Below, piece after piece: positions 3,346-43,148 of a stretch of DNA of 64,000 bases (position 1 is its first letter; every line of letters begins with the position of its first letter). The stretch lies in assembly GCA_902562835.1 (NCBI GenBank), contig CACEUX010000008.1, positions 3,726 through 67,725 on the forward strand, in the 5' to 3' direction. The DNA is from an uncultured Fidelibacterota bacterium (GTDB lineage Bacteria; Fidelibacterota; Marinisomatia; Marinisomatales; UBA1611). Position numbers and translations under genes: made by a program. Under the pieces are notes generated by a model. That model was given only the letters and a program-made list of their open reading frames with translations. It was not told where the DNA came from and ran no database searches.

Positions 3346-4665
3346 ATGAAACCATTCATACGGATGCGCAAAGTTCTTCTATATCTGACTTTCTTATCCT
3401 TTGTTTTTGCAAAGGAACCATATGCTTACCTCTATCTTTTACCATTTGATAATATACAAAATGATCCGGCTGTGGAGTGGATAGCCACTGGTTTGAGTGA
3501 TATGGCTCGTGAAGAGATGAAAAATATTTATGGTGTCAGGATCAAAACAAAAGAAGATCTGGAGACGATCATGAACGATCGTTCGCTTATGTTAAAGCAG
3601 CCAAGAGGGTCTCGCAATCTTTTAGTCCTCGGTAAGTACAATCGACAACTGGATAAGGTCCACGTTACCATTCAGGTAATAGATGTTGCAAACTGGGAAG
3701 AACTTGCAAAGTCTCAGCTCACTGAGGTTTATACCCAAGTCCCAGCACTGAATAAAGCAGTTGGTTCATCTGTCCATCAAATGGTCAAACCCTTTTTGCC
3801 AACTCAGCCCAAAGTTGCGATATCCCCGTTCCCAAAGTATACTGAAAAGACTGTTGTTAAAAAAAGAAGCCCTGTATCTATACAGGCAGAAAAAGTTGCC
3901 TCCAGTCTAGATCAGCAGATCGCTGAATTAGAATCATCCATGGAATTTCTTTTAGGGGCCAAGGCTCGAGACAGAGAGAGGCCGAAAAAAGATATCTCTC
4001 GATTTGATTCTGGAGAGTGGACCATGGATTTTGATGTTGATCGCAAGATGGAAGAGAACCCCGAAAATGCTGGTAATACTCAACTGTTATCGGGCGTGTT
4101 GGACCAACTACTGACCAACCCTTATGAAGTGGAATTACAGCGCCCAGAGTTTGATTATCATGAGGATGATGAATTGTATATGACCGTCCGTTTTCCTGTC
4201 ATATACCGACTGAAAGATAAAATATTAAAGGATATGTTATCTGGGCTGCCGTATACGGGCATAGAGCAAGATGGCACACTGACAATTTTCTATTTTGATA
4301 GAACCAAATTCAATTTTCCTAAGCATCATGTCGATGCGATAAAATCTGGTTCATATAGGATCATACCTGTGATGAGAATATTCGATAAAAATCGAAATAC
4401 TCTTATTCTTGTTGCAGATACACCTGAAGAATATTGGCATTCCAGAAATAGTAATAAAGTTCTTTATATCCCTCAGCATCAGTTTTCACCATTGATAGAT
4501 TTTTCTGTGGGTGGGTGGTCCATCCAAGTTGCTATGGAAACAGTAGAGATTCAAGCAGTATACGAATTTATCCTGCCTGTTTCTGAGCTTGAGTCACTCA
4601 GTAATGTTAGTCTAAAATTCATAAATGAAACTGATCTTAAAACATTTCTTGATCCTATTCTCTGA
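3346..4665 (+). CDS. Hypothetical secreted protein
   Basis: 439-aa ORF with a hydrophobic N-terminal signal-like segment (VLLYLTFLSFVFA). I recognise no family motif. Confidence 0.6.
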   Translation: MKPFIRMRKVLLYLTFLSFVFAKEPYAYLYLLPFDNIQNDPAVEWIATGLSDMAREEMKNIYGVRIKTKEDLETIMNDRSLMLKQPRGSRNLLVLGKYNRQLDKVHVTIQVIDVANWEELAKSQLTEVYTQVPALNKAVGSSVHQMVKPFLPTQPKVAISPFPKYTEKTVVKKRSPVSIQAEKVASSLDQQIAELESSMEFLLGAKARDRERPKKDISRFDSGEWTMDFDVDRKMEENPENAGNTQLLSGVLDQLLTNPYEVELQRPEFDYHEDDELYMTVRFPVIYRLKDKILKDMLSGLPYTGIEQDGTLTIFYFDRTKFNFPKHHVDAIKSGSYRIIPVMRIFDKNRNTLILVADTPEEYWHSRNSNKVLYIPQHQFSPLIDFSVGGWSIQVAMETVEIQAVYEFILPVSELESLSNVSLKFINETDLKTFLDPIL

Positions 4666-4700
4666 TATTTGAAAGATATTAAAAGACATTGCCAGTAAGT

Positions 4701-5831
4701 ATGAAAAAAACACTTTTTATTATTTTAACCACACTTTCATTTGGGCAAAGACTCGATGAAATAGATATAGCATTAAATGAGCTAGAAACAATAGTTCAAA
4801 TGGCATCACGGTCATCCCAGAAAGTATTTGTAGAAGATTTCACTGGTCTTCAGTGACCATACTGTCCCTCTGCGAGTTTCGCAATATCACAGATGCTTGA
4901 TGATTATCCAGAGACATTAATGAGCATCGAATGGCATAATTCAAGTTTCACCCCTGGAAATTCAGATTTTGATATTCCAGAATATAGTTCTAGAGCCTCT
5001 ATGTATGGAGTGGGCGGTATCCCACACACTCAGTGGAATGGCGTACAAGAAACGGTTGGAGGCTATCCAAATGGTAACTGGGAACAGTTCATAGGAACTT
5101 TCACAGCACTATACAATAATATGGTTGGGAATGATACCCCTTATGAAGTGAGTATAAATGGCTATGCTGGTTTGGAGGTAAGCTACGAAGTAGCAGTTTC
5201 AATGGATTCTGATATGAGTAGCTCTAACCAAAAAGTTGATATATTTGTAGCCGAAGATAACATATGGTCTTATTGGACAGGTGCGAGCCAGTATCATAAT
5301 GCAAGAAATGTAGCAAGGGATTGGTTAGCTACAGAGGATCTGACAATTAGCTCAGAAGGTGAATCACAAATATTTTCAGGTAGTTTTGATCTTGATGAGG
5401 ATTGGAATTCAGACAGTGTAAAGATCATTGCAATTGTTCAAAACTATTCTTCAAAACAGATCTATCAGGTCACTGCCGTAAATATAAATGATATGAATCC
5501 AGATATAGATGATGATGGTGTTTTGAATGGAGAAGACAATTGTATAGATATTTATAATCCAGGCCAGGAAGATAGTGATAGTGACCTCATAGGTGATCTT
5601 TGCGACCCTTGTGACAATTTAGTTTATATTGCTGGAAATATAAATGGTGATACAAATGATAATGGGATTCCAGTTATTGATATCATGGATGTTCTTTCTT
5701 TAGTGGATTATTTGTTGTTTGATGATTCATACGCTTGTCAAGACCCTTCAATGAATTTTAATAATGATGAATTTGTTAATGTCGTTGATGTTATAGCATT
5801 GGTCCAATACATTTTGGGCGGAAATAACTAG
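4701..5831 (+). CDS. Selenocysteine-containing secreted thioredoxin-fold protein (family A, copy 1) with C-terminal TSP3 repeats and dockerin-like module
   Basis: ATG 4701 (MKKTLFIILTTLSFGQ signal) is in frame with the listed ORF 4893..5831, with no other stop between them. The only interruption is TGA 4854-4856 inside VEDFTGLQ-U-PYC-PSASFAI, a UxxC redox motif. A cis-Pro-like GGIPHTQWNG lies downstream. The C-terminus has DIDDDGVLNGEDNC..NPGQEDSDSD..CDPCDN (TSP3) and two Asp/Asn-rich dockerin-like segments. Confidence 0.82.
4854..4883 (+). promoter_or_regulatory. UGA(Sec) plus putative bacterial SECIS hairpin (copy A1)
   Basis: The hairpin TGCGA-GTT-TCGCA (4871-4883) starts 17 nt from the U of the UGA. 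Spacing matches copies A2 and A3. The closing pair is U-A here and C-G in the other two copies, a compensatory change. Confidence 0.6.
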
Positions 5832-5843
5832 GCGAGATAGTTT

Positions 5844-6371
5844 ATGGAGAGAATACATAGATCTACTTTTTATCTCTTTATACTAACAAATTTTATATTT
5901 GCTGACAGTAGTGATATTGGAAATACCATACCAGATCTCAAGATACGATTACTTGATGGTACAACCAAAACTATACATGAACTCGTTGATGATGGTCCTC
6001 TTATGATCGATTTTTGGGCTACATGGTGTGTGCCGTGTAAAAAGCTAATGAGATACCTAGACCAGTATCATCAGGATTATTCTAAGGATGGTTTTAAGGT
6101 GCTGATGATCAATACGGATACTCCTAGATCAATGGGTAAAGTAAAGTCATATGTAAGAGCTCAGGATTATAAATTCTATATTGGAATGGATCCTAATAAA
6201 ACGATCTCAAAGAAATTAAATGGGATGGTTATGCCCACTATGATACTTGTGGATAAAGGCGGGGAAGTGAAATGGCGTCATCAAGGCTACATATCAGGCG
6301 AAGAAATTGAGGTGAACAATCAGATCAAACAACTTTTGGAGAATAATCTTGAAGAAACATTTGAAGGCTAA
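5844..6371 (+). CDS. TlpA/ResA-like periplasmic thiol-disulfide oxidoreductase (Cys form)
   Basis: 175 aa with an N-terminal signal peptide. It has the FWATWCVPCKK thioredoxin active site and MPTMILVD (cis-Pro). Size is typical of the TlpA/redoxin family. Confidence 0.85.
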   Translation: MERIHRSTFYLFILTNFIFADSSDIGNTIPDLKIRLLDGTTKTIHELVDDGPLMIDFWATWCVPCKKLMRYLDQYHQDYSKDGFKVLMINTDTPRSMGKVKSYVRAQDYKFYIGMDPNKTISKKLNGMVMPTMILVDKGGEVKWRHQGYISGEEIEVNNQIKQLLENNLEETFEG

Positions 6372-8325
6372 AATCTTAAAAGAAGCAATTGTACTTATCG
6401 TGTGTACATCATATGTATTTGCTAATCAAGTAGATATGAATGGAGCTGTGAATTCAAATTTTGGAAACAGCTACGGATTTTATGACTTCTCTGAAAATAT
6501 ACTTGATCTAAATATATTTTATAATGACCTTCAAGGTTGGATACAGTATGAATATTCAAATCCTCCTGATATTGGTTTTGGGAAAAATGATATAAGAAAA
6601 TTTAGGCTTGAATACTCAACGGGAGATTTTATCCTAAAATTGGGTGACCTCTATGAGTTCTGGGGGCGAGGTCTTCTCCTTAATCAGTTTGATGATCAGG
6701 TGACTAATTTTGATAATGGTACCAGAGGGATGTTGATCGAGTATGACAGTGGCTCTCTTTCTGCAAGTCATATGAACGGGAATTCAAGTATATGGAACAT
6801 GGGAGCAGATACAAGAACGCCGGAATACAATAATATTCATAGCATGATGGCAAATCGATTAGAGTACAACAGGGGTCTTATTACATTAGGTCTAACCCAG
6901 CTTAGGTCAAATGAGGAACATGATGTGAATTTTGGTCCATCTGTTTTTGTCAGCCATGACCTTAAAGGTGCCTATGCTACATGGGCAAGCGGGAATGCAG
7001 ATCTTTTTGTAGAATATGTAGATAAAGTGTCAACGGAAAAAGTAACTATGTTTGGCACCATACCTAATGATACTTTGCTGAAAGGGCACGGCTACTATCA
7101 AAACTTTAATTTCTATTTTGGTAATTGGGGCATCTCAACTGAATACAAGCGGTATGCTTTTGATAGAGCATATGGTGATATAACTTCTGATGATTATGGT
7201 AACCAGATAGAATACCAGCAGATGCCAACACTTGGGAAGGAACATAATTCCACGTTGCTTGGTCGGCTGACACACAATTACAACTTCAATGACGAAAGAG
7301 GGGCGCAAGTTGAGGTGAATGGATCACTTCTTGGACTATCTATAACAGCCCAATACGCACATCTCAGTCGAAATGAAACATGGCAATCAGTTGGGTCATT
7401 TGAATGGACAGATAAGGCTATTGAGGGCTTTCTACCAAGTTCAGATATATCTGCTTTACCATATTGGGAAAATTACCAGGAAGTCAGTGGGTACGCATTC
7501 AATGATAAGTTCTATTTCAAACTTGGTAGGGGCTCAAATAAAGAAGTTTTAAAGACCATACGATATTTTGAAGGTACTCAGGTTGATATTTCATCTGTAG
7601 ATACTTCATTAACATGGGTCTATGATACACTCGTATGGAATGACGAGACATATTTTGATTCAACAGAAGTCGAACTTTATGATACCAATTATACATCGCC
7701 GTTTAATGTTGAGTCCAAGTTATGGCAAGAAAGTAAAGCTTTTACCATACCTCTGGAAGTGAACTATATTTTTGATAATGGATATACGCTCGGCCTGGGT
7801 TTTCAATACCAAGAGAGAGAAAAGGTAAATAGGTCAAAGGGTAATGCGACAACATTTAATGCCAGTGACTCATCATGGACGATGTACGACCCTGATGATT
7901 ATTCAAATACATATGATGAGACCGTAAGCCAACTTGCAAATCCAGATGGCGCTGTCAAAACACAATATAATCGGCTAGTTTATCTCTCCATAAGTAAAGC
8001 TCCTAAATGGTCTTTTACCATTACCCATGATATGACTAATGCATATGAAGCAAGCTCTCCATATGACCCATACTATAATCCACTTGAAGCATTGATCTCT
8101 GGTGATCTAAAATACTTCACAGGAAAGAGGAACAATATTGAACCACCCAGCTGGATACAAAATCGTTGGGTCTCCGTGGAGTTTGCCTATAATATCACAT
8201 CATCGCAAAGACTTTCAATTATGTATGGCTCAATCCAAGGCGGACTCTTTTGCAGTAATGGTGTTTGCAGACTTATACCCCCATTTAATGATGGGGTTAA
8301 GATCAGTTACAGTGCGAGTTTCTAA
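6349..8325 (+). CDS. Putative large outer-membrane beta-barrel protein (paralog 1)
   Basis: 658 aa with a signal-like N-terminus. Aromatic/Gly-rich alternating strands run throughout and the terminal residue is Phe (..KISYSASF), an OMP signature. It overlaps the TlpA gene end by 23 nt. The start (TTG 6349 or TTG 6361) is uncertain. Confidence 0.65.
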   Translation: MKKHLKAKILKEAIVLIVCTSYVFANQVDMNGAVNSNFGNSYGFYDFSENILDLNIFYNDLQGWIQYEYSNPPDIGFGKNDIRKFRLEYSTGDFILKLGDLYEFWGRGLLLNQFDDQVTNFDNGTRGMLIEYDSGSLSASHMNGNSSIWNMGADTRTPEYNNIHSMMANRLEYNRGLITLGLTQLRSNEEHDVNFGPSVFVSHDLKGAYATWASGNADLFVEYVDKVSTEKVTMFGTIPNDTLLKGHGYYQNFNFYFGNWGISTEYKRYAFDRAYGDITSDDYGNQIEYQQMPTLGKEHNSTLLGRLTHNYNFNDERGAQVEVNGSLLGLSITAQYAHLSRNETWQSVGSFEWTDKAIEGFLPSSDISALPYWENYQEVSGYAFNDKFYFKLGRGSNKEVLKTIRYFEGTQVDISSVDTSLTWVYDTLVWNDETYFDSTEVELYDTNYTSPFNVESKLWQESKAFTIPLEVNYIFDNGYTLGLGFQYQEREKVNRSKGNATTFNASDSSWTMYDPDDYSNTYDETVSQLANPDGAVKTQYNRLVYLSISKAPKWSFTITHDMTNAYEASSPYDPYYNPLEALISGDLKYFTGKRNNIEPPSWIQNRWVSVEFAYNITSSQRLSIMYGSIQGGLFCSNGVCRLIPPFNDGVKISYSASF

Positions 8326-8399
8326 GTTTGCTCTAATGCACGAAGAATGTTAGACTCTAGAGTTGATTTTAACGAATTTTTAATTATCAAAGTAAAAAA

Positions 8400-9575
8400 A
8401 TGAAAAACCTATATATAATACTACTGATATCATTACCCTTTGCTCAGCAACTGGATCCTGTTGATATGGCCGTTGAAGAATTAAGAACTATAGTTGAAGC
8501 TGCATCAAGATCAAGTCAGCGTGTTTTTGTTGATGACTTTACAGGACTAAACTGACCATACTGTCCATCCGCGAGTTTCGCGATTTCAGAAATGTTAGAT
8601 GAGTTTCCTGGAACCCTAATCAGCACTGAGTGGCACTCAGCGGGCTATACGCCAGGAGATTCTGACTTTGAAGAGTGTTATTATTATGACAACTTTGGAG
8701 GCTGTTATGGTGCAAGAGCTAGTCTTTATGGCGTAGGAGGCATCCCACACACAGAATGGAATGGTATATATGACCTGACAGGAGGTTGGGCTAATGGTAA
8801 TTGGGAACCAGCGTATAATTATTTTATTGGGTTCTATAATGACCTGATTGGAACTGAAACCCCCTACGAGATCATTATCAATGGAATAAAAGATGGCTCA
8901 ACAGTTAATTATGAGATTACTGTTTCTATGGATGATGACTATTCTGTCCAGAACCAAAAAGTAGAAATAATAGTTGTAGAGGATAACATTATGTCATACT
9001 GGGCAGGTGCAAACCAAGACCATAATGCAAGGAATGTTGCAAGGTATTGGATAGGCACTGAAGACCTGACCATCAATTCAGCTGGGCAATCACAAACTTT
9101 TTCAGGATCATTTGAGATAGATGAAGAAGCATGGAACTCTGACAGTGTTAAAATTATTTCAATGGTTCAGAATTATGGGAATTATGAAGTATTTCAAGTT
9201 CAAGAGATAAATGTTAACGAATTTGATACGGATCAGGATGGCGTGGTAAATAATGAAGATAATTGTGAGGCAGACTATAACCCTGGGCAAGAAGATATAG
9301 ATGGAGATGGACTAGGCGATGCATGTGATCTCTGCGACAACACAAACATATACATACCTGGTAATGTCAGTGGTGATTATTGGTATTATGATACTAGTAG
9401 TCTAGAACCGACGGTAACTATTGATGTGTTTGACGTTTTAAAACTTTCGGAGATCATCGTATCAGGGGAAGAAGAGAGTTGTGGATATCAAGCCGGCGAT
9501 CTAACTGGAGATGGTGATGTTAATATAATTGATGTTATTGCACTTGCTTCGTTTATAATGGACGGCGCGTTCTAG
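8400..9575 (+). CDS. Selenocysteine-containing secreted thioredoxin-fold protein (family A, copy 2) with TSP3 and dockerin-like C-terminus
   Basis: ATG 8400 (MKNLYIILLISLPFAQQ) is in frame with ORF 8592..9575. The single in-frame TGA 8553-8555 sits in VDDFTGLN-U-PYC-PSASFAI. DTDQDGVVNNEDNC..NPGQEDIDGDGLGDACDLCDN is TSP3, and GDLTGDGDVNIIDVIALASFI is a dockerin-like repeat. Confidence 0.83.
8553..8582 (+). promoter_or_regulatory. UGA(Sec) plus putative bacterial SECIS hairpin (copy A2)
   Basis: The hairpin CGCGA-GTT-TCGCG (8570-8582) starts 17 nt from the UGA. It lies within a 36-nt block identical to copy A3. Confidence 0.6.
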
Positions 9576-9609
9576 TTATTACTTTTCAATTTGAACTAGT
9601 CATAAAAAA

Positions 9610-9636
9610 GGTGGTTGTTATAACCGCCTTTTTTTT
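9610..9636 (+). terminator. Rho-independent terminator after family A copy 2
   Basis: GGTGGTT-GTTAT-AACCGCC stem-loop followed by T8 (9629-9636). Confidence 0.7.
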
Positions 9637-9774
9637 GACTTTATCCAACGTTTTTTAATTTATTGAAAAATATAATTTTTTATTTTAAAGCTTATAATAT
9701 TAACTATTGAGTTTTATATGTGTTTTCAACTATTATTGTGTTAGTCTGAATTGAGAACTACCAAGAGGTTAATC

Positions 9775-10980
9775 ATGAAAAAAGCTCGTTCAATAGCACT
9801 TTCATTTATTACAATCACATTTATTTCTACATTCCTTCCTGCACAGGCACTTGATCACAGGCACATGGCGTTCGAGAATCTACGCATGTCTGTTATGAAT
9901 GCTTCTCAAAGTGGCCAAAATGTTTATGTTGAAGACTTTACAGGTCTTAACTGACCATACTGTCCATCCGCGAGTTTCGCGATTGATACACTTCTAAAAG
10001 AATTTCCAGGTACACTTCACTCAATTGAATGGCACAGTCCAGGTTACACTCCAGATTCTTCTGACTTTTGTCTCCAAACAGAGTTTTACATGAGAGCTGG
10101 TCTATACGGAGTTAGTGCTTACCCTACCACTGTATGGAATGGTGTGCATAATCAGGTGGGTGGAGCCAGTGGTGGGAACTGGGAATCCATATATCCTGGA
10201 TATTTAGAGTTATATCATGAGCATTATGACCTGCCATCTCAATTTCGTCTTGGCATATCAGGTGAATATGAGCCTGGAGATAATGAGGTCAATTTTAGTG
10301 TAGAGATACTAATTGACAACGATATTGATACTACTGTAAACATTGAGAATACCTATGTTGAAGTATTCGCTGTTGAAGATAATATTTATTCCTTCTGGGG
10401 AAGTGTTGGGCAGTGGCATAACGCCAGGAATGTAGCAAGAAGGTACGTCACAAAAAGTGAAGCCAATAAGAATCCAGTTTCGGTAAGCGAAGCGGGACAG
10501 TCAGAGATCTTTGAGCACAATTTACTCTTGTCAGATGCCTGGGAGCATTCAAATGTGAAAATAGTTGCTATTGTGCAACAATTTCAAGGTGAAGGATCTG
10601 ACCATCCCATTACTCAAGCTCAAACAAGAAATATAAATGATCTAGATCCTGATCCGGATGGTGATGAATTGACCTATCTTTATGATAACTGTCACTATGT
10701 ATACAATCCTGGGCAAGAAGATGCTGATGGAGACGAATATGGAGACGCCTGTGACGCATGTAATGGACTTGTAAATATTCAAGGGAATGTAGACCTTGAT
10801 GCTCATGGAGAAAATTTTACTCCGATCATTGGTGTGGCTGATGTTTTAGCATTATCTGATCTTCTTGATGGTAGTGGTCTTCCTCCAAATGATTGCCAGT
10901 CTATAGATATGCTTGAAGATGGAACGATAAATAACTTCGACCTGATAGTATTGGTAGATGTGGTAATGGCAGGAGGCTAG
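9775..10980 (+). CDS. Selenocysteine-containing secreted thioredoxin-fold protein (family A, copy 3) with TSP3 and dockerin-like C-terminus
   Basis: ATG 9775 is preceded by AAGAGG (SD-like) and opens a signal peptide, MKKARSIALSFITITFISTFLPAQA. ORF 9751..9954 and ORF 10090..10980 share a frame and are joined by stop-free sequence after TGA 9952-9954, in VEDFTGLN-U-PYC-PSASFAI. SAYPTTVWNG is cis-Pro-like. DPDPDGDE..NPGQEDADGDEYGDACDACNG is TSP3. Confidence 0.83.
9952..9981 (+). promoter_or_regulatory. UGA(Sec) plus putative bacterial SECIS hairpin (copy A3)
   Basis: The hairpin CGCGA-GTT-TCGCG (9969-9981) starts 17 nt from the UGA. Confidence 0.6.
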
Positions 10981-11058
10981 TTATTAGTTTTTTTAAATAT
11001 CTTAAAAGTATAGTTGAATTGCTATTCCCTAAATCAATAGGTTAGGTATCTTTAAATC

Positions 11059-12003
11059 ATGAAAGTTATTTTGTTCTATTTCCTTCGTTTACTTTTAATT
11101 ACTTCTTTTGCAGTAATGCCTATTCAGGCTCAACTCCAAGTTGGAGATATTTCCCCTGATTTTAGTGGTCCAATGTGTATGAATGGAGAAGATGTTAACC
11201 CTGATATTGTAACAGGTGATTACTGGAGTTTATTCGAGGAAGGAGATGGAAAGGTTACATGGATAAACTTATTCACTTCATGGTGACCATCCTGTCAGGT
11301 GGAGGCTCCACAAACAGAAAGTATATGGCAGGACTTCTTAGCAGAAAATGAAAATTATCTTAATATAGTTGCCAATGGCTTTGACTGGACATCTTACACG
11401 TGTGCAGGGTGGGCCTCAGCATTTGGAATTACATATCCTATGATAGATGGTGGATCAAGTGGTGGGGAAGCTTGGAATCTTTTTGGAGATGGTTATATTC
11501 CTCACAATGTTGTTCTAGATCATAACCACGAGGTGCTTTACACATCCTCAGGATATAGTGAAGGTGCGATCATGGCTGCTATAGAACTTGGATTATCATA
11601 TGTTCCAAGAGATGAAGATGGAGATGGGATCATGGATAGTACTGATAATTGTATTGATGTTCCTAATGATGACCAATTAGACCATGATTTGGATGGTCTT
11701 GGCGATGCTTGTGACCTTTGCAACAACTTAGAAATATATGTTACTGGTAATATAGATGGGTCTGTTGGTATGACCGATCATAATCCAACCATAGATCTGT
11801 TTGATATACTTCGTTTGTCCGATATTGTCCTCTTGGGTGTAGATGAGGGCTGTGGCTATGAGATCAGTGATATTAGAGAAGATGGAGTTATAAACATTCT
11901 TGATATTATTACATTGGTACAGTACGTCCTCTATGGTGAATTGCCTGATGAGAATACAATCGCTATACCACCTAACGCATATCTCTTATCTGAAAATAAT
12001 TGA
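11059..12003 (+). CDS. Selenocysteine-containing TlpA-like thioredoxin-fold secreted protein (family B, copy 1) with TSP3 and dockerin-like C-terminus
   Basis: ORF 11059..11286 (signal peptide, ..WINLFTSW) and ORF 11299..12003 are in the same frame. They are separated only by TGA 11284-11286, which gives W-U-PSC-QVEAP. This aligns with WCxPC..E.P of TlpA-type redoxins. YIPHNVVLD is cis-Pro-like. DEDGDGIMDSTDNC..DHDLDGLGDACDLCNN is TSP3, and a dockerin-like tail follows. Confidence 0.82.
11284..11311 (+). promoter_or_regulatory. UGA(Sec) plus putative SECIS hairpin (copy B1)
   Basis: The hairpin GTGGA-GGC-TCCAC (11299-11311) starts 15 nt from the UGA. Confidence 0.55.
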
Positions 12004-12138
12004 CCCACATTTTTGGTAGACTCAATCAGCTAATGATAGAGAAGTCATTATTTATCAAGTAAATTGTAAAATAAACAGCTACCTTTACTTAAATTAGGCG
12101 ACGAACATTAGTTGCCTTTTGTTTAATGATAAAAGCTC

Positions 12139-15100
12139 ATGCTGAATAATAAGAAACATCTGTACAAAAGCATCATCACCCTAATGGCCTTTTCTTGTTT
12201 TATTTTTGGTCAAACCGATTTCTCATTCAAAAATATATCAGTCAAGGATGGGCTTGCTGAGAGTACTGTTAAAGTAATTTATGAAGACCAGAATGGTTTC
12301 ATATACTTTGGCACAGAAAACGGCCTCGATGTTTTTGATGGCTATGAGTTTACAAATTATCAAATGAACTCATTCAATGAATTATCAATTCTTGGCAATA
12401 AGATCTCAACCATTTATGAAGATGCCAGTCATATGATCTGGGTTGGCACTGAATTAGGCGTCAGTAAGTTTGATCCATCGAAAAGAGAATTTTCAAGGCC
12501 TATTAAACTTGATGGGGCAGACCTAATTAATTCTGAAACTATTATTGACGACGGTCAAGGTAACATTTATATCAAATTGAGAGATGATGGTTTAGTTTAT
12601 CAGTACAATGGTGTTGATAGTGTATTGACATGTTTTAATTGTTCAGATGAATCAGTCATAAATGATGAGATGGTTACCGTTTTAAGTAAAGATTCTAAGG
12701 GTACTATCTTAATTGGAACCAATACTGGCCTACGCTACTATGATATCAAGTCAAATCGAATTATCAAAGTAGGTGTTGAAGCTGGATTAGATGATATATC
12801 TGTGAATGCCATAGAGCGCGGAGCCAAAAATGATATTTGGGTTGGAACCTCAAATGGTCTATTCAAATTAAATGGTGGTCTAGGTGGTAGTATAGATGTT
12901 TATAGAAAAAATGAACAAAGTACATCAATAGTTTCAAATTATGTTAAAGATCTGGATTGGGATGTAGAGAGAAATGAACTATGGATAGCAACCCAAAATG
13001 GTATTTCTCGTTACATACCTTCAGAGTCAAGTTTTTTTAATATCCAGATGACACCATATGCAGACAGTATAATAGAAAATGATATATCTGAAATACTTAT
13101 TGCAGTTAAATCAGGTCGTTTATGGTATACTACTGAAAATCATTCTGGGCTGAATTGTTTATCGGTGGGAGAGGATTTCGATTCTGAAGGTCCACCTCCG
13201 GCAAACCATTTTGAGCATGACCCCATTGATAAAGGATCCATAGCGGATAATGAGATCAATGATTTTATTGAAGACAAAGCTGGTCATGTTTGGATAGGTA
13301 CGGGACAAAATGGTATCAGTTTCTTTTCCTATGTTAAACCAAAGTTTGTGAACCATAGATATGATCAGGAGAATGAATGGGGTTTAAAGAGTGACAAGAT
13401 ATATTCTATCACTACGCAGAGTGACGGCATGATGTGGGTAGCTACTGGTTTTGGTCTTGAAAAAATTTCATATGATGGTATCAGGGACCAAGAGTATGAA
13501 AAGTCTCTCCTAAATGTCAACTATATAATTGACCTTGAGATCATAAATGATGTGATGTTGTGGGTAGCGACAGATCAAGGCATACTAAAGATCGATACTT
13601 GGAACGATTATGATGCTGAAAATATTATTAGGTTTTCGGAATCAGATAGCCTTCCGCCATCAAGACGAATATCAAATAATCTAGTTCATGATATTTTGCC
13701 CATTGAAGATAAGATCTGGGTTGCCACAGGATCTGGTATGGTGATAATTGATACAACAACTAATAGTGTCACAGATTTTAATTCAGATCTGATCGCAAGA
13801 GTTATTTCAAAGGACTCTAGTGGTAATATTTGGCTTGGAACGGAAATGGATGGACTTTTTAAGATTCCATACGAACTATTGGGCGATATTGAAAAGGGAG
13901 AAGATTTTGAGTTAGAGGGGCATATCTTTGATAAGGCTTTTACTAGTGGTATTTCTTCTTCCCAGATAACTTGTATTACGGAAGATAAAAATGGAGTGAT
14001 CTGGGTTGGTACTAACGGAGGCCTTAATAAGTATATCAGTGAAAAAGATAATTTTGAGCATTATTTTGTTCAAGATGGTCTGCCGAGTAACTATATAACA
14101 GGTGTGCTTGTTGATAAAACTAATGGGTTGTGGATCAGTTCAAAAAAAGGAATTTCATTTTATGACCAGGTTAATTCAACATTCACCAATTACAGTCTTA
14201 CAGATGGTATAGGTAATATTGATTTTCATAGGCATAGCTATGATCAAAGTGCAGATGGAAGTATATTTTTTGGTGGGCCAATGGGCATAACATTGGTCAA
14301 TCCGGCAGAATTACAATTCAATGATTATCAACCACCCTGTTTGATTACTAGACTTAAGAAAACCTATTTTGATGATTCAGTAAAAGAAATATACTCATTC
14401 GATGATTCCGATGGCTCCAATGGGGGAGAGAGTATTTCAACCATAGTGATCGATCATAGAGTAAAATCATTTAGTATTGATTTTGTGGCTCTCAACTATC
14501 ATCAAACTGTAAAAAACCAATACAGGTATAAGTTAGAGCCATTTGATAGGGACTGGGTATCATCTCAAGGGTTACGTTTTGCATCGTATAATAATCTTGG
14601 AAGAAGTACTTATAATTTTATGGTTCAAGGCTCTAACGATGATGGGGTATGGTCCGCACCTGCAAAGTTAGATATCAAATTTACGCCACATCCTCTTTTA
14701 AGTATTTGGGCTTTCTCTTTCTATTCAGTCCTTTTGATCATTGGTATATTTATTTTCATGCGTCACCGTATGCATAAACAAAAATATCAACTAGAGGAAG
14801 AACGACGCATTCAAGAGCTCGAGCAAGCGAGAGATTTTCAAATGTCCTTGATACCGCAAAGCCCACCAGATCACCCTGACTATGATATTGCACTGCATAT
14901 GAAAACATCAACGGAAGTCGGTGGGGATTATTATGACTTTTTTCCACAAGAAGATGGCTCTATGTATGTTGTGTGTGGTGACGCAACTGGCCATGGTTTA
15001 AATGCTGGAATGATGGTCTCTATCACAAAAGCAGGACTCTATGGGTCGGACTTTGACACACCTTCAAGTACAACCACACGTCTGAATAGAACTATTAAGG

Positions 15101-15519
15101 CAATCGATCTTGGTACAACTCGGATGTCTTTAAATATGGCAAAATTTAATAACGGGTCTTTTGATTTCACATCAGCAGGAATGCCCCCGGCATATCTATA
15201 TAAACACTCTACAAAAGATGTAAATGAAATACTTGTTCCGGGGCTTCCATTGGGTTCAATGAAAAAAGCAGATTTTGATTTACATTCTTTTGATCTTGAT
15301 ACAAACGATGCTCTTGTTTTGATCTCTGATGGACTTCCAGAGTGTGTAAACCATGAGGGTGAGATGCTAGACTATGAGCCGGTTAAGGATTGTATTACAG
15401 CAAATGGAAATAAAACAGCACAGGGTATTATTGATTCTCTGATCGATCTTGGCGATGACTGGATGTCGGGTTTAATGAATGATGATGATATTACTCTTGT
15501 GGTAATAAAGAAAAAGTAA
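12139..15519 (+). CDS. Sensor protein: periplasmic two-component-regulator beta-propeller repeats, one TM segment, cytoplasmic PP2C/SpoIIE-type phosphatase
   Basis: 1126 aa. Many repeats of the ..G.IW.GT..GL..(F/Y).. type are typical of regulator propeller domains. A hydrophobic segment (WAFSFYSVLLIIGIFIF) follows. The C-terminus has GGDYYDFF...GDATGHGLNAGMM...DDITLVVI, matching SpoIIE/PP2C motifs. Confidence 0.8.
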   Translation: MLNNKKHLYKSIITLMAFSCFIFGQTDFSFKNISVKDGLAESTVKVIYEDQNGFIYFGTENGLDVFDGYEFTNYQMNSFNELSILGNKISTIYEDASHMIWVGTELGVSKFDPSKREFSRPIKLDGADLINSETIIDDGQGNIYIKLRDDGLVYQYNGVDSVLTCFNCSDESVINDEMVTVLSKDSKGTILIGTNTGLRYYDIKSNRIIKVGVEAGLDDISVNAIERGAKNDIWVGTSNGLFKLNGGLGGSIDVYRKNEQSTSIVSNYVKDLDWDVERNELWIATQNGISRYIPSESSFFNIQMTPYADSIIENDISEILIAVKSGRLWYTTENHSGLNCLSVGEDFDSEGPPPANHFEHDPIDKGSIADNEINDFIEDKAGHVWIGTGQNGISFFSYVKPKFVNHRYDQENEWGLKSDKIYSITTQSDGMMWVATGFGLEKISYDGIRDQEYEKSLLNVNYIIDLEIINDVMLWVATDQGILKIDTWNDYDAENIIRFSESDSLPPSRRISNNLVHDILPIEDKIWVATGSGMVIIDTTTNSVTDFNSDLIARVISKDSSGNIWLGTEMDGLFKIPYELLGDIEKGEDFELEGHIFDKAFTSGISSSQITCITEDKNGVIWVGTNGGLNKYISEKDNFEHYFVQDGLPSNYITGVLVDKTNGLWISSKKGISFYDQVNSTFTNYSLTDGIGNIDFHRHSYDQSADGSIFFGGPMGITLVNPAELQFNDYQPPCLITRLKKTYFDDSVKEIYSFDDSDGSNGGESISTIVIDHRVKSFSIDFVALNYHQTVKNQYRYKLEPFDRDWVSSQGLRFASYNNLGRSTYNFMVQGSNDDGVWSAPAKLDIKFTPHPLLSIWAFSFYSVLLIIGIFIFMRHRMHKQKYQLEEERRIQELEQARDFQMSLIPQSPPDHPDYDIALHMKTSTEVGGDYYDFFPQEDGSMYVVCGDATGHGLNAGMMVSITKAGLYGSDFDTPSSTTTRLNRTIKAIDLGTTRMSLNMAKFNNGSFDFTSAGMPPAYLYKHSTKDVNEILVPGLPLGSMKKADFDLHSFDLDTNDALVLISDGLPECVNHEGEMLDYEPVKDCITANGNKTAQGIIDSLIDLGDDWMSGLMNDDDITLVVIKKK

Positions 15520-15570
15520 TTTATTCTAAGACATAGGTAAGATTGATTGTGAAAAGGCTAATAATAATTA

Positions 15571-16107
15571 TTGCGTTGGTGTCCTCGTTTTTTATCAGCT
15601 CAAGATAAGGTACCGAACATAAGACTTAAAATGATAAACGGTAAATACGCAAAATTATACGATTTTCTCAAAGAAGGACCTATGATAATTGATTTCTGGG
15701 CAACCTGGTGCGAGCCATGCAAAAAGCAAATGCGCTATTTAGACCTTTTCTATAATCATTTTAAACCATCTGGGTTTAATGTCCTCACGGTTAATACTGA
15801 TTCACCAAAAAGTATGAGCAAGGTAAAGCCTTATATTCGTACAAAAGGTTTTGAATTCAATGTTGCCGTAGATCCAAATAGCCAGGTGAAAAAGAGACTC
15901 AAAGTACAGGAAATGCCTACAACGATAATTATTGATCAGGATGGTTCAATATTGTATCGTCACAAGGGCTATGTTCCAGGCGATGAAGTTGGTATTCTAA
16001 AGGCTGTAACTGATATCCTTGATAAAAAAGGTATAGAATATCTACCTCTAGACCTCGATAAAGTCCAAGCAGTAAAGAAACAAGAGAAACTTAATATTGA
16101 TTTTTAG
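15571..16107 (+). CDS. TlpA-like thiol-disulfide oxidoreductase (Cys form), apparently frameshifted from its signal peptide
   Basis: FWATWCEPCKKQM active site and MPTTIIID cis-Pro. It is a close paralog of 19382..19960. As listed it has no signal peptide. A signal peptide (GTG 15549, MKRLIIIIALVSSF) lies in the neighbouring frame, across a T6 run at 15588-15593. Confidence 0.75.
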   Translation: MRWCPRFLSAQDKVPNIRLKMINGKYAKLYDFLKEGPMIIDFWATWCEPCKKQMRYLDLFYNHFKPSGFNVLTVNTDSPKSMSKVKPYIRTKGFEFNVAVDPNSQVKKRLKVQEMPTTIIIDQDGSILYRHKGYVPGDEVGILKAVTDILDKKGIEYLPLDLDKVQAVKKQEKLNIDF

Positions 16108-18385
16108 AATATACAATTTGACCAAGCTCCTTAATAGTACGCTTTTCTGTTCTGGAATCTTATTTACAACATTAGTCAATGCACAAATAAGTACAGGAGG
16201 AGATGCTTCACTTAAATTTGGTGAGAGTAAGAATAATTTTAATTATTCTGAGGTCTTATTAAATATGAATGTCAGCAATGATTACCTAACAACATGGTTT
16301 CAGTTTGAATATAGTAACCCTCCTGAAATTGGCTTAACTAAAAATGGCTTAAGAAAGTTTAGGGTAGATTATGTTGGAGATAATATTGAACTTTCTGTCG
16401 GAGACATTTACAAAATATGGGGAAGGGGACTTATCCTAAATCAATTTGATGACCAAGATGTAGACTTAGATAATGGATATAGGGGCTTAAGTTTTGGACT
16501 GATAGAAAATGATTATTCATTAAATCTTATTGCAGGTAATTCAAATATATCTAACATTACTTCTGATTATATGTATGACCTCGATCTTGAAGTTCGAAAG
16601 CCAAATTATTTTCCAAAGCATTCCTTATTTGGTGGCGATTTTGAGTTGTTCCGTGGTCCGGTATCTTTTGCAACATCTTTTTTGCAAAGTCGTGAGAGCC
16701 ATCCTATCAATGCTGGTATGCAACCAGATAGCATCGATGTTATTCACCGAATACATGGGCTAAGAAGTGGGTATGAAGGAAACTCATTAAGTGGGTATGT
16801 AGAATTGGCAAATAAATTAACTCTTCTACCCACATCTATGGGAAGTGATGATCATGAAGATTTTAGACCTTATAATGGAACCTCTTTATTTGCAAATCTG
16901 AATTACTATTTTAACATGTCACCCTTTGATGGTTGGTCACTCATGATGGAGTATAAGAATTACAATACTACAAAGATCAATCCAGACCAAAGGAATAATT
17001 ATGTAAATAATTATGACATGAATTTGATCTTCACTCAACCACCTACAGTGATTCGTGAGCATAGTAGTGTATTGCTAGCAAGGCTGATTCCGCAGGTCAA
17101 TTTCAATGACGAGGTGGGCTACCAACTCTCACTCGTAGGCCCAGTTAGTAATCTAGGGTATTTTACTCTTAATTATCAGGCTGCCAGCAGGACCAGCTTA
17201 TGGGCAAAAGAATTTCCAGATACTGTAAACGCGGCATTTAGTTCAAAATGGAGTGGCGATAGTTCTATAACTTATTTACCATATGATGATGATGTCACGT
17301 TTCCTTATAATGAGTTGTATGTTGAAATGGAAGGGTATATCAATAAGATACGATATCAACTTGGTTTAGGCTTTACAAATAAAATATCTGAATACCATTC
17401 TCTCTATAGTAGTGCTCAAAATAATAGCTGGGACATAGGTGAGTTATTTACAGATCTTAATAATAGTGGTACATGGGATCCGGGTGAACCTTATGATGAT
17501 CTATATAGTATTGTAAATGAGAGATTAGAGAATAAATATACCAATGCTGTCACAGTACCAACGTTGTTTAATTATAATCTGGGAAATGGATTGAGCATCG
17601 ATCTCAAATATGAGTACCAAAGGTTGAAAAGTGGTGTTAATTATAATTTCACATTGTCATCGGATGAGTACTTCGAAGATCTTGATGGAGATGGCTTATG
17701 GGATATGGCAGAGTTGTTTACTGATGATAATGAAAATGGTGTGTGGGATGATGCTGAAGAAACTTGGTATGATAATTGGTTGAATGGTTGGATTTCTGAT
17801 GACCTTTTACCAAATTATGACACGAATGGCAATGGTGAATATGATATTGGAGAATATTTTTCTGATGCAGATGGTGATGGTATTTGGGACCCCGCTGAAG
17901 CTTTCACTGACCTTGATGGTGATGGAATATGGGATGATGGAGAGGTCTTGGACGATATGAATAATGATGGTGTATGGACACCAAAAGGAACTTACGTAGA
18001 TAGTACAAGATCTAACTTTTATGCCTATGATGGCGATAGCGATGAAAAGCTAGCTCAAGAATTTCAAAATAATCATATGTTAACAATTGGTCTTGGAAAG
18101 TCACCTTATTGGTCTTTATCATTGACCATAGAATCAAGTTCAGCGTACGAATATGGACCTCAACCTTTAAGCATCTCTAATCCACTTGAAGATCTACTTG
18201 GCAACATTATGGATATGGAAAACAAATGGGTGGCAATCGACCTTATGATAAATATCAACTCAAATACACGTCTTGATCTTATGTATGGGACTTTAAGAGG
18301 TGGTGTCATTTGTAGTAATGGTATTTGTAGATATGTTGAACCATTTGATGACGGATTCAAGCTAAGTTTGACCTCAGTATTCTGA
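16097..18385 (+). CDS. Putative large outer-membrane beta-barrel protein (paralog 2) with Asp-rich repeat insertion
   Basis: 762 aa. It shares N-terminal (WFQFEYSNPPEIG...LILNQFDDQ) and C-terminal (GG.ICSNGICRYVEPFDDGFKLSLTSVF) blocks with 6349..8325 and ends in Phe. It overlaps the upstream TlpA-like gene by 11 nt. Confidence 0.65.
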   Translation: MIFRIYNLTKLLNSTLFCSGILFTTLVNAQISTGGDASLKFGESKNNFNYSEVLLNMNVSNDYLTTWFQFEYSNPPEIGLTKNGLRKFRVDYVGDNIELSVGDIYKIWGRGLILNQFDDQDVDLDNGYRGLSFGLIENDYSLNLIAGNSNISNITSDYMYDLDLEVRKPNYFPKHSLFGGDFELFRGPVSFATSFLQSRESHPINAGMQPDSIDVIHRIHGLRSGYEGNSLSGYVELANKLTLLPTSMGSDDHEDFRPYNGTSLFANLNYYFNMSPFDGWSLMMEYKNYNTTKINPDQRNNYVNNYDMNLIFTQPPTVIREHSSVLLARLIPQVNFNDEVGYQLSLVGPVSNLGYFTLNYQAASRTSLWAKEFPDTVNAAFSSKWSGDSSITYLPYDDDVTFPYNELYVEMEGYINKIRYQLGLGFTNKISEYHSLYSSAQNNSWDIGELFTDLNNSGTWDPGEPYDDLYSIVNERLENKYTNAVTVPTLFNYNLGNGLSIDLKYEYQRLKSGVNYNFTLSSDEYFEDLDGDGLWDMAELFTDDNENGVWDDAEETWYDNWLNGWISDDLLPNYDTNGNGEYDIGEYFSDADGDGIWDPAEAFTDLDGDGIWDDGEVLDDMNNDGVWTPKGTYVDSTRSNFYAYDGDSDEKLAQEFQNNHMLTIGLGKSPYWSLSLTIESSSAYEYGPQPLSISNPLEDLLGNIMDMENKWVAIDLMININSNTRLDLMYGTLRGGVICSNGICRYVEPFDDGFKLSLTSVF

Positions 18386-18507
18386 TTTAATCAAAATAAT
18401 AAGAATTATTTCTAAAAAGAATTTTGCATTAATATTCGTATGAAAAATTTTATTAATGTAGCTAAATTTCATTCGCAAATCATAACCCAAAATAAACTCT
18501 CAGAAAT

Positions 18508-19374
18508 ATGAAGCAGCTCATTTCAATATTGATAATACCATTCTTTCTTAGTATTTCACCACTTGATGGTCAAGATGTTTACATGGAAGATTTTAGTGTA
18601 CCTATATGTGAAAACGGTAATGGAGAAGATACTCTACACTTTTTTGAAGCATATAATGGTGCATATAACGATTGTGGTTACAAGGTGATATTTGCCACTC
18701 TTTTTACCTCCTGGTGAGGATACTGCTGGGGGGAGGCTCCCCTCACACAGCAGTTATACGACACATATAATGACCAAGGCCTTGAAGTGGTTGCATTTGG
18801 AGCTGATTGGGGTGAGCCATATACTTGCCAACAGTGGATGAACTCATTTGATATTACATATCCCATTGCTGACTTTGAGACTGGCATGCCTAATTGGTAT
18901 CAAGAGGATATACCTATCAATCTACAGATGCATCAAATAGGTTGGGGCCTACCTTACAATATTATTATAGACCATAATATGGAGGTCATCTGGGGGGGCG
19001 TAAATGACATTGCTGAGGAAGAAGTATGGGAAGAGGCTGTTACAATGATAGAAAGTGCTCTGAATCATTTGAATGCGGAGGCACTCGTTGATAATGATGG
19101 GGATGGTATAGCTAATGAATGTGATGATTGCCCTGACTCACATCTATATACCTTAGGAAATTTTGATTTTTCAGAAGAAATCGTAGTTGATGGTCTTAAC
19201 TTTGTATATGCCCCTAGCATAGAAGTTTATGATCTACTTTTCCTTTCAGATCTAGTTAGCAGTGGTGATGAAATTTCACCATGTTATATTGAGGCGAGTG
19301 ATTTTACTGGTGATAATGCTCTGGATTTAATTGATATAATGGCTTTAGCTAGCTATATAGTAGAGGGTAATTAG
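18508..19374 (+). CDS. Selenocysteine-containing TlpA-like thioredoxin-fold secreted protein (family B, copy 2)
   Basis: ORF 18508..18717 (signal peptide, ..ATLFTSW) and ORF 18787..19374 are in frame. TGA 18715-18717 gives W-U-GYC-WGEAP, with stop-free sequence between the two ORFs. GLPYNIIID is cis-Pro-like. DNDGDGIANECDDCPD is a TSP3-like repeat, followed by a dockerin-like tail. Confidence 0.8.
18715..18744 (+). promoter_or_regulatory. UGA(Sec) plus putative SECIS hairpin (copy B2)
   Basis: GGGGA-GGC-TCCCC core (18730-18742), extendable to 18728-18744 with one G-U pair. The offset from the UGA is 15 nt, as in copy B1. Confidence 0.55.
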
Positions 19375-19381
19375 AAAAATC

Positions 19382-19960
19382 ATGACCATTAAGGCTCGAT
19401 ATGATATGCTTAGAAAGATATTTTTTTTTACAATGCTCTTTACATTGGCATATTCGCAAGGCAAGGTTCCAAATGTACGTCTAAAAATGTTAGATGGTAG
19501 CTCAGCCAAACTTTATGATTACCTCAAAGATGGGCCTATGATCATTGACTTTTGGGCAACTTGGTGTGAGCCATGTAAAAAACAGATGCATCATCTAAAT
19601 AAATTTCACCAGCATTTCAAAGATGCTGGATTTAAGGTTCTTACTGTTAATACTGATACTCCAAAAAGTATGGGCAAGGTGAAATCATATATAAGGTCAA
19701 AGAAATTCAAATTTTTTGTAGCTGTAGATCCTAATGGTCAAGTAAAGAAAAAATTAAAAGCAGAGCTCATGCCGACTACGATCTTAGTTGATACGGATGG
19801 CTCGGTGCTTTATCGTCATCAGGGGTATTACCCAGGAGATGAAGATAAAATATTAAAACATATCACGGACTATTTTGATGCAGCAGAAATAAGCTATGAC
19901 CCATACGATACTGAAAAGAAAAAACAGACAGCTAAAAAGCAAGTAGATATAGATTTTTAG
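19382..19960 (+). CDS. TlpA-like periplasmic thiol-disulfide oxidoreductase (Cys form)
   Basis: 192 aa with signal peptide (IFFFTMLFTLAYSQG), FWATWCEPCKKQM and MPTTILVD. It starts 8 nt after the family B Sec gene. Confidence 0.85.
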   Translation: MTIKARYDMLRKIFFFTMLFTLAYSQGKVPNVRLKMLDGSSAKLYDYLKDGPMIIDFWATWCEPCKKQMHHLNKFHQHFKDAGFKVLTVNTDTPKSMGKVKSYIRSKKFKFFVAVDPNGQVKKKLKAELMPTTILVDTDGSVLYRHQGYYPGDEDKILKHITDYFDAAEISYDPYDTEKKKQTAKKQVDIDF

Positions 19961-20040
19961 ACGAATATATCGCTGTTTAGATCCCTACATATAGATTTCA
20001 AATAAATTAAATATTTAATGATGCCCATTATTTTTAATAT

Positions 20041-20114
20041 GCGCCCGTAGCTCAACTGGATAGAGTGTCTGGCTACGGACCAGAAGGTTGGGGGTTCGAA
20101 TCCTCCCGGGCGTA
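20041..20114 (+). tRNA. tRNA-Arg (anticodon ACG)
   Basis: 74-nt cloverleaf folded by hand. Acceptor GCGCCCG/CGGGCGU (G1-U72 wobble), D-arm GCUC..GAGU, anticodon stem UCUGG/CCAGA with loop CUACGGA, T-arm GGGGG-UUCGAAU-CCUCC. CCA is not encoded. Confidence 0.88.
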
Positions 20115-20124
20115 CTTATCGACA

Positions 20125-20152
20125 AACCCTTCTTTTTAGAAGGGTTTTTTTG
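20125..20152 (+). terminator. Rho-independent terminator after tRNA-Arg
   Basis: AACCCTTC-TTTTTA-GAAGGGTT (8-bp stem) running into a T-run (20145-20151). Confidence 0.8.
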
Positions 20153-20193
20153 TTTGATGGAAGTTTCTATCACAATAATATCTGATTAATAAA

Positions 20194-21474: not shown

Positions 21475-21617
21475 ATTGATTGTTTTTATTTCATGTCTAT
21501 CAGCTTAAATGATATTTTTCAAAATTAGGTGTAAAAGCTTTTCAGGCCTTTTTAAAAAGGGTTTTTTATTAGAATTTTGTATATATAAACATTAGATTAT
21601 CGTCAGGAATTCAATCC

Positions 21618-22409: not shown

Positions 22410-22435
22410 AAGAGTTTTATATATCATTTCTAAAT

Positions 22436-22460
22436 AGCCTCACTTCGTGGGGCTTTTTAT
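22436..22460 (+). terminator. Rho-independent terminator after family B copy 3
   Basis: AGCCTCAC-TTC-GTGGGGCT stem (with one G-U pair) followed by T5 (22455-22459). Confidence 0.7.
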
Positions 22461-22644
22461 TTCTAGTATTATTATTTAATAAAGAAAAAACACTTTTTTT
22501 ATTTAAATATACATTCTATTTTAAATTTGCCTACGACATAGCCCTGTTCTTATATTTAGGTGAGTCATTGTACTCACGAGGTAAGACAAAAATTAATTAA
22601 CAGCTGGTAGCTACAGGAGTAGTCTATCAAATGCGGAGTTCGAT

Positions 22645-42868: not shown

Positions 42869-42876
42869 TAAATATC

Positions 42877-43146: not shown

Positions 43147-43148
43147 GT

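Follow-up and report, generated by a model that had tools for sequence, protein, structure and literature searches.

ResA, StoA, TlpA and DsbE (CcmG) share a thioredoxin fold with ResA-type additions, a W-C-x-x-C-x-x-E-x-P layout, a cis-Pro loop and an N-terminal export signal, and all these characters are also found in, or predicted for, family B. This family is represented by three genes (B1, B2 and B3) in a marine Marinimicrobia (SAR406) window, i.e. the whole 64-kb stretch of DNA analysed here, and these genes very probably encode secreted redox enzymes of the ResA/TlpA type, whose catalytic Cys is replaced by a UGA-encoded Sec (U). Besides this replacement of the first Cys of the motif, family B departs from the described enzymes in several ways: (i) its identity to ResA and DsbE is only 14-21% in structural alignments, and its score on the NCBIfam ResA profile is 26-40 bits, for a cutoff of 170; (ii) it contains an extra invariant Cys pair, C40 and C115; (iii) it carries a TSP3/dockerin-like tail and, in many orthologs, a T9SS sorting domain, both of which are lacking in ResA and TlpA; and (iv) cytochrome c maturation genes are not found nearby.

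Selenoproteins of this kind have been catalogued before. In the Global Ocean Sampling (GOS) survey published by Zhang and Gladyshev in 2008 (PMC2398784), Dataset S1 includes a set, '#Prx-like 1' (pfam00578, UxxC), which comprises 225 sequences in 37 samples and resembles family B by its motif, its fold class and its marine origin. Among the reads listed in that dataset, JCVI_READ_1018099 is 86% identical to B1 and JCVI_READ_1096619 is 85% identical to B2, both being written with U. At least 34 FTSWU and at least 6 FASWU reads are present, and the B3-type motif TTWUGYC is not found among the reads listed. As it is listed, 'Prx-like 1' is a broad bin that also holds unrelated-looking UxxC redoxins (e.g. 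...GAWUPKC...), and its GOS reads are unassigned fragments, presented in the dataset without Marinimicrobia taxonomy, full architecture or gene neighbourhood. Family B is thus already known, B1- and B2-like reads having been catalogued as selenoproteins in 2008; the finding is correct, but it is not new.

Other described sets also come close to family B. GOS 'Prx-like 3' (pfam08534, UxxC), which is the 'Redoxin family protein' of reviews, includes a clear relative, JCVI_READ_828404 (FASYUGLCQAEAP...YIPHNVVINH), 30-38% identical to B1-B3 but more distant, with Y-U rather than W-U. The proteins of NF041054 (ResA-like WAxxUGC, or 'UGC-containing TlpA disulfide reductase') have, like family B, a Sec-containing TlpA/ResA-like fold; membership of family B in NF041054 was nevertheless rejected, with 15-22 bits for a cutoff of 300 and with U-G-C there against W-U-x-x-C here. 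NF045500, which defines family A, has in common with family B the locus, the organisms, the UxxC motif, the TSP3/dockerin-like tail and a SECIS-type hairpin after the UGA, whereas the catalytic domain is Omp28-like in family A and ResA-like in family B. Membership in NF045500 was likewise rejected (B1 108 bits, B2 39 and B3 36, for a cutoff of 200), the match being restricted to the tail. Family B reaches no NCBIfam cutoff, and no NCBIfam model covers it.

Family B adds no new kind of selenoprotein, and UxxC Prx/TlpA-like selenoproteins rank among the commonest marine selenoprotein classes. What is added here is: (i) the placement of family B in Marinimicrobia (SAR406), (ii) the definition of a compact putative SECIS, (iii) the identification of Sec-to-Cys reversions and of redox-dead relatives, (iv) a conserved TlpA-DUF6029-Sec-redoxin cassette, and finally (v) concrete hypotheses on the redox chemistry at the cell surface of an ocean lineage that is both abundant and uncultured. 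Further work may be worthwhile only on the conserved cassette and on the surface-type architecture.

Architecture and active site of B1, B2 and B3

An earlier note on this DNA had proposed that the TGA at 11284-11286 joins, in frame, a signal-peptide ORF to the downstream ORF, and that two further genes contain W-U-GYC. Both proposals are borne out. B1 reads ...TWINLFTSW-TGA(11284-11286)-PSCQVEAPQTE..., which gives LFTSW-U-PSC-QVEAP, B2 reads ...LFTSW-TGA(18715)-GYCWGEAP... and B3 reads ...AFTTW-TGA(21831)-GYCLTEAP.... Each of these genes is composed of one frame with a hydrophobic, signal-like N-terminus and exactly one internal TGA. Their features are as follows.

11059-12003, + strand: B1, a 314-codon selenoprotein gene, with its true stop TGA at 12001-12003
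11059-11130, + strand: predicted signal peptide of B1, of the Sec type, MKVILFYFLRLLLITSFAVMPIQA then QLQ, read by eye and with a presumed cleavage site
11284-11286, + strand: UGA of B1, predicted to encode Sec (U76), which would be the nucleophile in the U-x-x-C redox motif
11293-11295, + strand: C79 of B1, the resolving Cys of U-x-x-C, an invariant alignment column
11500-11502, + strand: P148 of B1, in YIPHNVV, the predicted cis-Pro of the thioredoxin fold, invariant and aligned to the Pro of LPT/IPT in ResA and StoA
11578-11940, + strand: C-terminal module of B1, with TSP3-like, Asp-rich Ca-binding repeats and then a dockerin-like repeat pair
18508-19374, + strand: B2, 288 codons, with UGA at 18715-18717 and the motif W-U-G-Y-C-W-G-E-A-P
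21618-22409, + strand: B3, 263 codons, with a GTG start, UGA at 21831-21833 and the motif W-U-G-Y-C-L-T-E-A-P

B1 is therefore arranged as a signal peptide, a ResA/TlpA-like redoxin domain with W75-U76-P-S-C79, Ca-binding repeats of the TSP3 type and a dockerin-like module. When the TGA is translated as Cys, Pfam Redoxin or AhpC-TSA matches run across the TGA site in B1-B3, with scores of 28.1 for B1 on Redoxin PF08534 (cutoff 26.6), of 32.2 for B3 on AhpC-TSA PF00578 (cutoff 26) and of 25.8 for B2, also on AhpC-TSA and slightly below that cutoff. The C-terminal module of B1 gives a weak Pfam TSP_3 match, and this tail matches the NF045500 profile at positions 256-376 with 108 bits; on family B homologs, the tail domains matched are PF00404 and PF02412. 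The T9SS sorting domain PF18962 is found in many family B orthologs and is absent from all three copies of the window.

The earlier note had also placed the UGA at the column of the nucleophilic Cys, and two kinds of alignment are in agreement with this placement. In a MAFFT alignment with the neighbouring Cys TlpA-like genes, the TGA column is that of the first Cys of WATWCEPC/WCEPC, and W75, C79, D109 and P148 are invariant. In a phmmer search against PDB sequences, the best matches are ResA (4nmu), a Bacteroides thioredoxin-like protein (2ls5) and StoA (3erw), and the alignments position U on the first Cys, E82 and P84 on the Glu and Pro of ResA, and P148 on the cis-Pro. The UGA falls outside the Cys column in neither alignment, and the E-x-P and cis-Pro region (YIPHNVV) that the note had recognised is likewise found at its expected place, its Glu and P148 being aligned to their ResA and StoA counterparts.

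A structural model points in the same direction. The AF2 model of P0005, a homolog 62-63% identical to B1, has a mean pLDDT of 78.8, with the blocks of the redoxin domain mostly at 70-95. Its top PDB matches in Foldseek are ResA (4nmu/1st9) and DsbE (3gl3), with E ~1e-9 and, when normalised to the target, TM of 0.74-0.82. From these alignments and from the model of the homolog, U is predicted to sit at the nucleophilic Cys position of ResA, StoA and DsbE.

We have little doubt that B1-B3 are intact and that they code for exported, thioredoxin-fold enzymes, namely thiol-disulfide oxidoreductases similar in type to ResA, TlpA and DsbE (CcmG), in which the nucleophile of W-C-x-x-C would be Sec. 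By analogy with the biochemistry of ResA and TlpA, the exported U76 would attack either the disulfide of a substrate or some oxidised form of sulfur, and C79 would resolve the intermediate, giving a selenenylsulfide. Glu82, Pro84 and the cis-Pro148 loop would shape the site as they do in ResA.

A hairpin downstream of the UGA

In all TGA forms, a SECIS-like hairpin starts 10-12 nt 3' of the UGA and presents a GGC loop at +21 to +23. In the window, it is found at the following positions.

11292-11317, + strand: SECIS-like hairpin of B1, overlapping the codons C79-Q-V-E82-A-P84-Q-T-E
11292-11295 paired with 11314-11317, + strand: lower stem of the B1 hairpin
11299-11303 paired with 11307-11311, + strand: upper stem of the B1 hairpin
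11304-11306, + strand: GGC loop of the B1 hairpin, +21 to +23 from the U of the UGA
18722-18754, + strand: SECIS-like hairpin of B2
21844-21861, + strand: hairpin of B3 around the GGAGGCUCC core

The core, GGAGGCUCC, is invariant in 34 distinct sequences. Its first base is the third position of the codon before E-A-P, and it continues with GAG GCU CC, which encodes E-A-P; the hairpin is usually lengthened by extra pairs and by a lower CUGU/ACAG stem. As the core coincides with the conserved E-A-P residues, part of the hairpin conservation is at the protein level.

In the 34 distinct sequences, 85.6% of the cells pair, versus 33-45% when the 3' partners are slid, and the observed covariation score is reached by none of 500 shuffles. 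Compensatory changes are seen at pair 17-27 (CG 22, UA 7, GC 2) and at pair 16-28 (GC 10, UA 9, AU 2). Synonymous sites are frozen at the hairpin only: Glu is encoded by GAG in 36/36 cases and Ala by GCT in 36/37, whereas conserved Gly, Tyr, Pro and Cys positions elsewhere in family B use 2-4 codons and, among the genes of the window, 41% of the Glu codons are GAG and 35% of the Ala codons are GCT. The sole exception is L035, where two codons differ at once, GGG replacing GAG (hence Gly for Glu) and GCC replacing GCT, so that the closing A-U pair becomes G-C. The element is absent from the Cys forms and from the forms without CxxC, which have GAA GCC CCA, GGG GCA CCT or GAA GCT GAA instead.

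The B2 hairpin folds with -18.4 kcal/mol (z = -2.8 versus shuffles), and the 60-nt single-sequence folds of B1 and B3 do not exceed shuffles in stability (z = -0.4 and +0.5, respectively). As B2 alone beats shuffles, the support for the hairpin is comparative and not thermodynamic. In the Rfam search of positions 4500-22500, no SECIS family matches, either at the gathering threshold or at E <= 10, and no family of any kind reaches its threshold.

In the SECIS of E. coli fdhF, a 17-nt upper stem-loop is located ~11 nt from the UGA, with G23 and U24 in the loop. The family B hairpin is similar to it in spacing and in its G-containing loop. The comparative evidence supports the view that the family B hairpin represents a compact SECIS overlapping the E-A-P codons.

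Reading of the internal UGA

The reading of U76 as a UGA-encoded Sec, which is drawn from sequence comparison, is strongly supported and is held here with high confidence. As suggested by the anatomy of the site, the hairpin 10-12 nt past the UGA would act as a bacterial SECIS and would recruit SelB with Sec-tRNA(Sec), Sec being then inserted without termination. The later UGA of the same B1 mRNA, where such a hairpin is missing, would end translation.

It is very unlikely that the UGA is instead read through without Sec machinery, either by a near-cognate Trp or Cys tRNA or by hairpin-stimulated read-through, to give a W-W/C-x-x-C protein. What speaks for such a read-through is that none of selA, selB, selD and tRNA-Sec is found in the 64-kb window (NCBIfam/Pfam ORF scans and tRNA search) or in the retrieved loci, and that, in an earlier listing (PMC5029168), an 'orphan' SelD was all that three SAR406 single-cell genomes had. 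In addition, plausible full-length proteins with W at the site are obtained when genes are called with code 4, and a few 'full-length' database entries read ...FTSWWPSC.... The DNA of two such contigs has, however, TGA at the site, so that these 'WW' homologs were rejected as a Trp form; and since the code-4 call in L001 also passes through a genuine TGA stop, the 'WW' entries are gene-calling artefacts. Furthermore, the site is the catalytic Cys of the fold, where a Trp would abolish redox activity, and its natural replacements are Cys and never TGG, with TGT within WCVPCQDEAP at L031:3211 and TGC within WCGPC at L039:18744. The hairpin, with the spacing known for bacterial SECIS elements and a G-containing loop, also argues against machinery-free read-through, as does the presence of a second, curated selenoprotein family (NF045500) in the same locus. 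We thus retain the Sec reading.

The hairpin itself could be viewed differently, the invariant GGAGG, which matches the consensus, being then a Shine-Dalgarno-like element involved in re-initiation or pausing and not a SECIS stem. This view is even less probable and was rejected: there is no in-frame start codon at Shine-Dalgarno distance 3' of GGAGG, the 3' complement CUCC is equally invariant, and the flanking pairs covary, up to the double compensatory change of L035. Moreover, the element vanishes exactly where TGA is replaced by TGT or TGC. The SECIS interpretation of the stem is therefore preferred.

That B1-B3 would be pseudogenes, or paired short genes, split by a nonsense mutation or by a sequencing error is extremely improbable and is refuted by conservation. 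NCBI and metagenome annotations do call the downstream piece only, and most database relatives begin just past the TGA, as exemplified by a 214-aa 'hypothetical protein' MEAPQTE.... This annotated 'start', however, falls within the redox motif, and the upstream piece alone amounts to a signal peptide and half a thioredoxin fold. When the window and the 36 genome loci are taken together, 37 homologous genes, with protein identities down to ~30%, share this TGA at one and the same column; two more family B genes, in the metagenome contig L039, bring the total to 39 distinct genes, including the three of the window. Residues are conserved on either side of it, F35, C40, N42 and W75 upstream and C79, E82, A83, P84 and P148 downstream being invariant across homologs. 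In a small clade (L034, L036-L038), the CxxC motif is lost entirely, and these genes are considered as redox-dead relatives. The value for annotation is that public MAG records and protein databases hold family B as 'hypothetical proteins' starting inside the active site, other records being artefacts of code 4, in which Trp takes the place of Sec.

Finally, a reassigned genetic code, in which TGA would be an ordinary sense codon for Trp or Gly, as some database entries with W at the site might suggest, has a vanishingly small probability and is refuted by stop-codon usage: in the window, whose G+C is 38.5%, TGA terminates 11 of the 39 long ORFs, the stop of B1 itself included (another case is gltX, whose end at 1608 lies just before the start of glnS at 1612), and is therefore not reassigned genome-wide, it also terminates 8 of the family genes recovered, a 4306-codon ORF has no in-frame TGA, and the internal TGA of family B genes is found at the catalytic column only.

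Relatives and gene neighbourhood

The protein search recovers ~150 relatives of family B, all from marine metagenomes or Candidatus Marinimicrobia MAGs, and the genome scan, performed with one genome per GTDB species, recovers 36 loci, all from Marinimicrobia, Neomarinimicrobiota or Fidelibacterota. The genome locus nearest to B1 is that of the MAG TMED46 (L003, 91% identity), and orthologs of B3 are found at L032:3217 and L025:2364. Identity between B1 and either B2 or B3 is only 33%. Each paralog of the window has its own ortholog in TMED46, and B2- or B3-type relatives are present in more distant MAGs (L035, L025).

In a neighbour-joining tree, family B forms one clade, distant from the Cys TlpA-like neighbours. 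Sec is found throughout this clade, with the Cys form L031 nested within it, and B1 belongs to a different subclade from B2 and B3. With separate orthologs in TMED46, distant B2- and B3-type relatives and separate subclades, the Sec forms are therefore old paralogs and not the recent expansion that the earlier note had envisaged. On this tree, Sec is the predicted ancestral state across the family B clade.

Several genes that surround B1 and B2 are arranged in cassettes, as listed below.

5844-6371, + strand: Cys-type TlpA/ResA-like redoxin, first gene of cassette 1 (TlpA - DUF6029 - family A x2 - B1)
6349-8325, + strand: second gene of cassette 1, for a DUF6029 protein that is probably a beta-barrel of the outer membrane
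15571-16107, + strand: Cys-type TlpA/ResA-like redoxin (WATWCEPC), first gene of cassette 2
16097-18385, + strand: DUF6029 protein of cassette 2, directly upstream of B2
19382-19960, + strand: third Cys-type TlpA/ResA-like redoxin (WATWCEPC), directly downstream of B2
TGA at 4854, 8553 and 9952: the three members of family A (Omp28-related selenoproteins), assigned on the basis of NF045500 (GOS_C)

The presence of Cys TlpA-like genes close to family B, as announced in the earlier note, is confirmed for 5844-6371, 15571-16107 and 19382-19960, all three with WATWCEPC, but their status as isoforms is not: they are 18-20% identical to family B and belong to a separate clade. As family B is a single clade far from these Cys TlpA-like genes, the neighbours are not its isoforms. 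The true Cys forms of family B are located in other genomes (L031:3211 and L039:18744).

The genes that directly precede family B are a Cys-TlpA gene and a DUF6029 gene, family A copies being intercalated in some cases. Of the 36 genome loci, 23 have DUF6029 in this upstream position, and 16 of these also have TlpA. Among the cases with this arrangement are L031, the locus of a Cys form, and a metagenome contig of 176 kb, which shows synteny along the entire region. Judging from gene order, TlpA(Cys), DUF6029 and the Sec-redoxin form a conserved cassette across Marinimicrobia.

The TSP3/dockerin-like module, together with the T9SS sorting domain of many orthologs, would locate family B at the outer envelope or at the cell surface. 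The Cys-type TlpA and the DUF6029 outer-membrane-barrel candidate may be its redox or export partners; HHpred similarity has been reported between Wzi-type outer-membrane beta-barrel homologues and DUF6029 (PMC9603273). In the search for a cohesin partner of the dockerin-like tail, the 4306-aa neighbour gives Big_13, Big_9 and Por_Secre_tail matches, without any cohesin match. One speculative and rather doubtful possibility is that the cassette could constitute a trans-envelope redox relay, composed of a periplasmic Cys-TlpA, the DUF6029 barrel and the Sec-redoxin, often beside Omp28-related selenoproteins, in which the selenoenzymes would be docked on the cell surface through the Ca-binding dockerin-like module that they share. 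If true, it would correspond to an extracellular selenoprotein assembly handling disulfides or oxidised sulfur/selenium species in seawater.

As for family A, the copy that was scanned scores 514 bits on NF045500, for a cutoff of 200. The TSP3/dockerin-like tail of the B1 type is also found at the end of these Omp28-related selenoproteins.

Genomic setting of the Sec-redoxins

In divergent Marinimicrobia, the family B Sec-redoxins (ResA/TlpA-like, with a W-U-x-x-C motif) keep a conserved gene order, in which a Cys-type TlpA/ResA-like redoxin, TlpA(Cys), is followed by DUF6029 (a probable outer-membrane beta-barrel), by zero to three Omp28-related selenoproteins and then by the Sec-redoxin. This order is seen in the window at 5844-12003 and 15571-19374, and in the homologous loci L006-L033, L039 and L040. 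This cassette often has a 439-aa unannotated ORF (window 3346-4665) on its upstream side and a Reg_prop/Y_Y_Y/SpoIIE sensor phosphatase (window 12139-15519) on its downstream side.

The Omp28-related selenoproteins (family A) of the window are encoded by:

4701-5831, copy 1, TGA at 4854
8400-9575, copy 2, TGA at 8553
9775-10980, copy 3, TGA at 9952

All three genes share the motif FTGL(N/Q)-U-PYCP, and the copy scanned matches NF045500 (Omp28-related selenoprotein, GOS_C) with 514 bits. In each of them, a hairpin, (C/U)GCGA-GUU-UCGC(G/A), is located about 18 nt 3' of the UGA, with a C-G to U-A compensatory change in copy 1. Taken together, families A and B amount to six Sec genes in the window, spanning 18 kb.

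Two further genes lie downstream:

22645-23427, protein of 260 aa containing an extended acidic repeat (D/E/Y), preceding the next gene
23434-36354, surface protein of 4306 aa, carrying Ig-like repeats (Big_13, Big_9) together with a type IX secretion (T9SS) sorting domain

In other MAGs (L017, L019, L022, L032), the acidic-repeat protein again lies on the downstream side of family B genes.

Cys and motif-less forms of family B

A Cys form of family B (WCGPCQTGAP) occupies the position of B3, the third Sec-redoxin of the window, in a more divergent but syntenic Marinimicrobia metagenome contig (L039:18549-19403). It has the same dockerin tail, and the two paralogs upstream of it are still Sec. 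This arrangement indicates that Sec/Cys exchange is happening paralog by paralog.

Other relatives are devoid of the redox motif:

L034:656-1114
L036:1825-2283
L037:668-1003
L038:2953-3288

As DADNFTS or SASSHVS wholly replaces W-U-x-x-C, with the remaining fold and the T9SS tail retained, these are probably redox-inactive derivatives.

Annotation and probable selenium use in SAR406

Family B appears in public protein collections under two erroneous forms (P0003-P0005, P0090, P0103-P0120; L001:540, L002:279; P0002 and similar). The first has Trp at the Sec site through code-4 translation, which in some cases also reads through the true TGA stop; the second is a shortened product starting at a GTG within the redox motif (MEAPQTE...) and named 'hypothetical protein'.

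Three SAR406 single-cell genomes have been placed in the 'orphan SelD' class, which lacks any known Se trait (PMC5029168, Table 1). That conserved UGA/SECIS genes are so abundant in Marinimicrobia suggests that these genomes do use Sec, selA/selB having been missed through incompleteness.

Elsewhere in the window, two sets of genes appear to have no relation to the Sec-redoxin finding:

41498-44282, minus strand, PntA/PntB transhydrogenase subunits
52048-61083, type IV pilus cluster (pilin, PilT, PilM, secretin)
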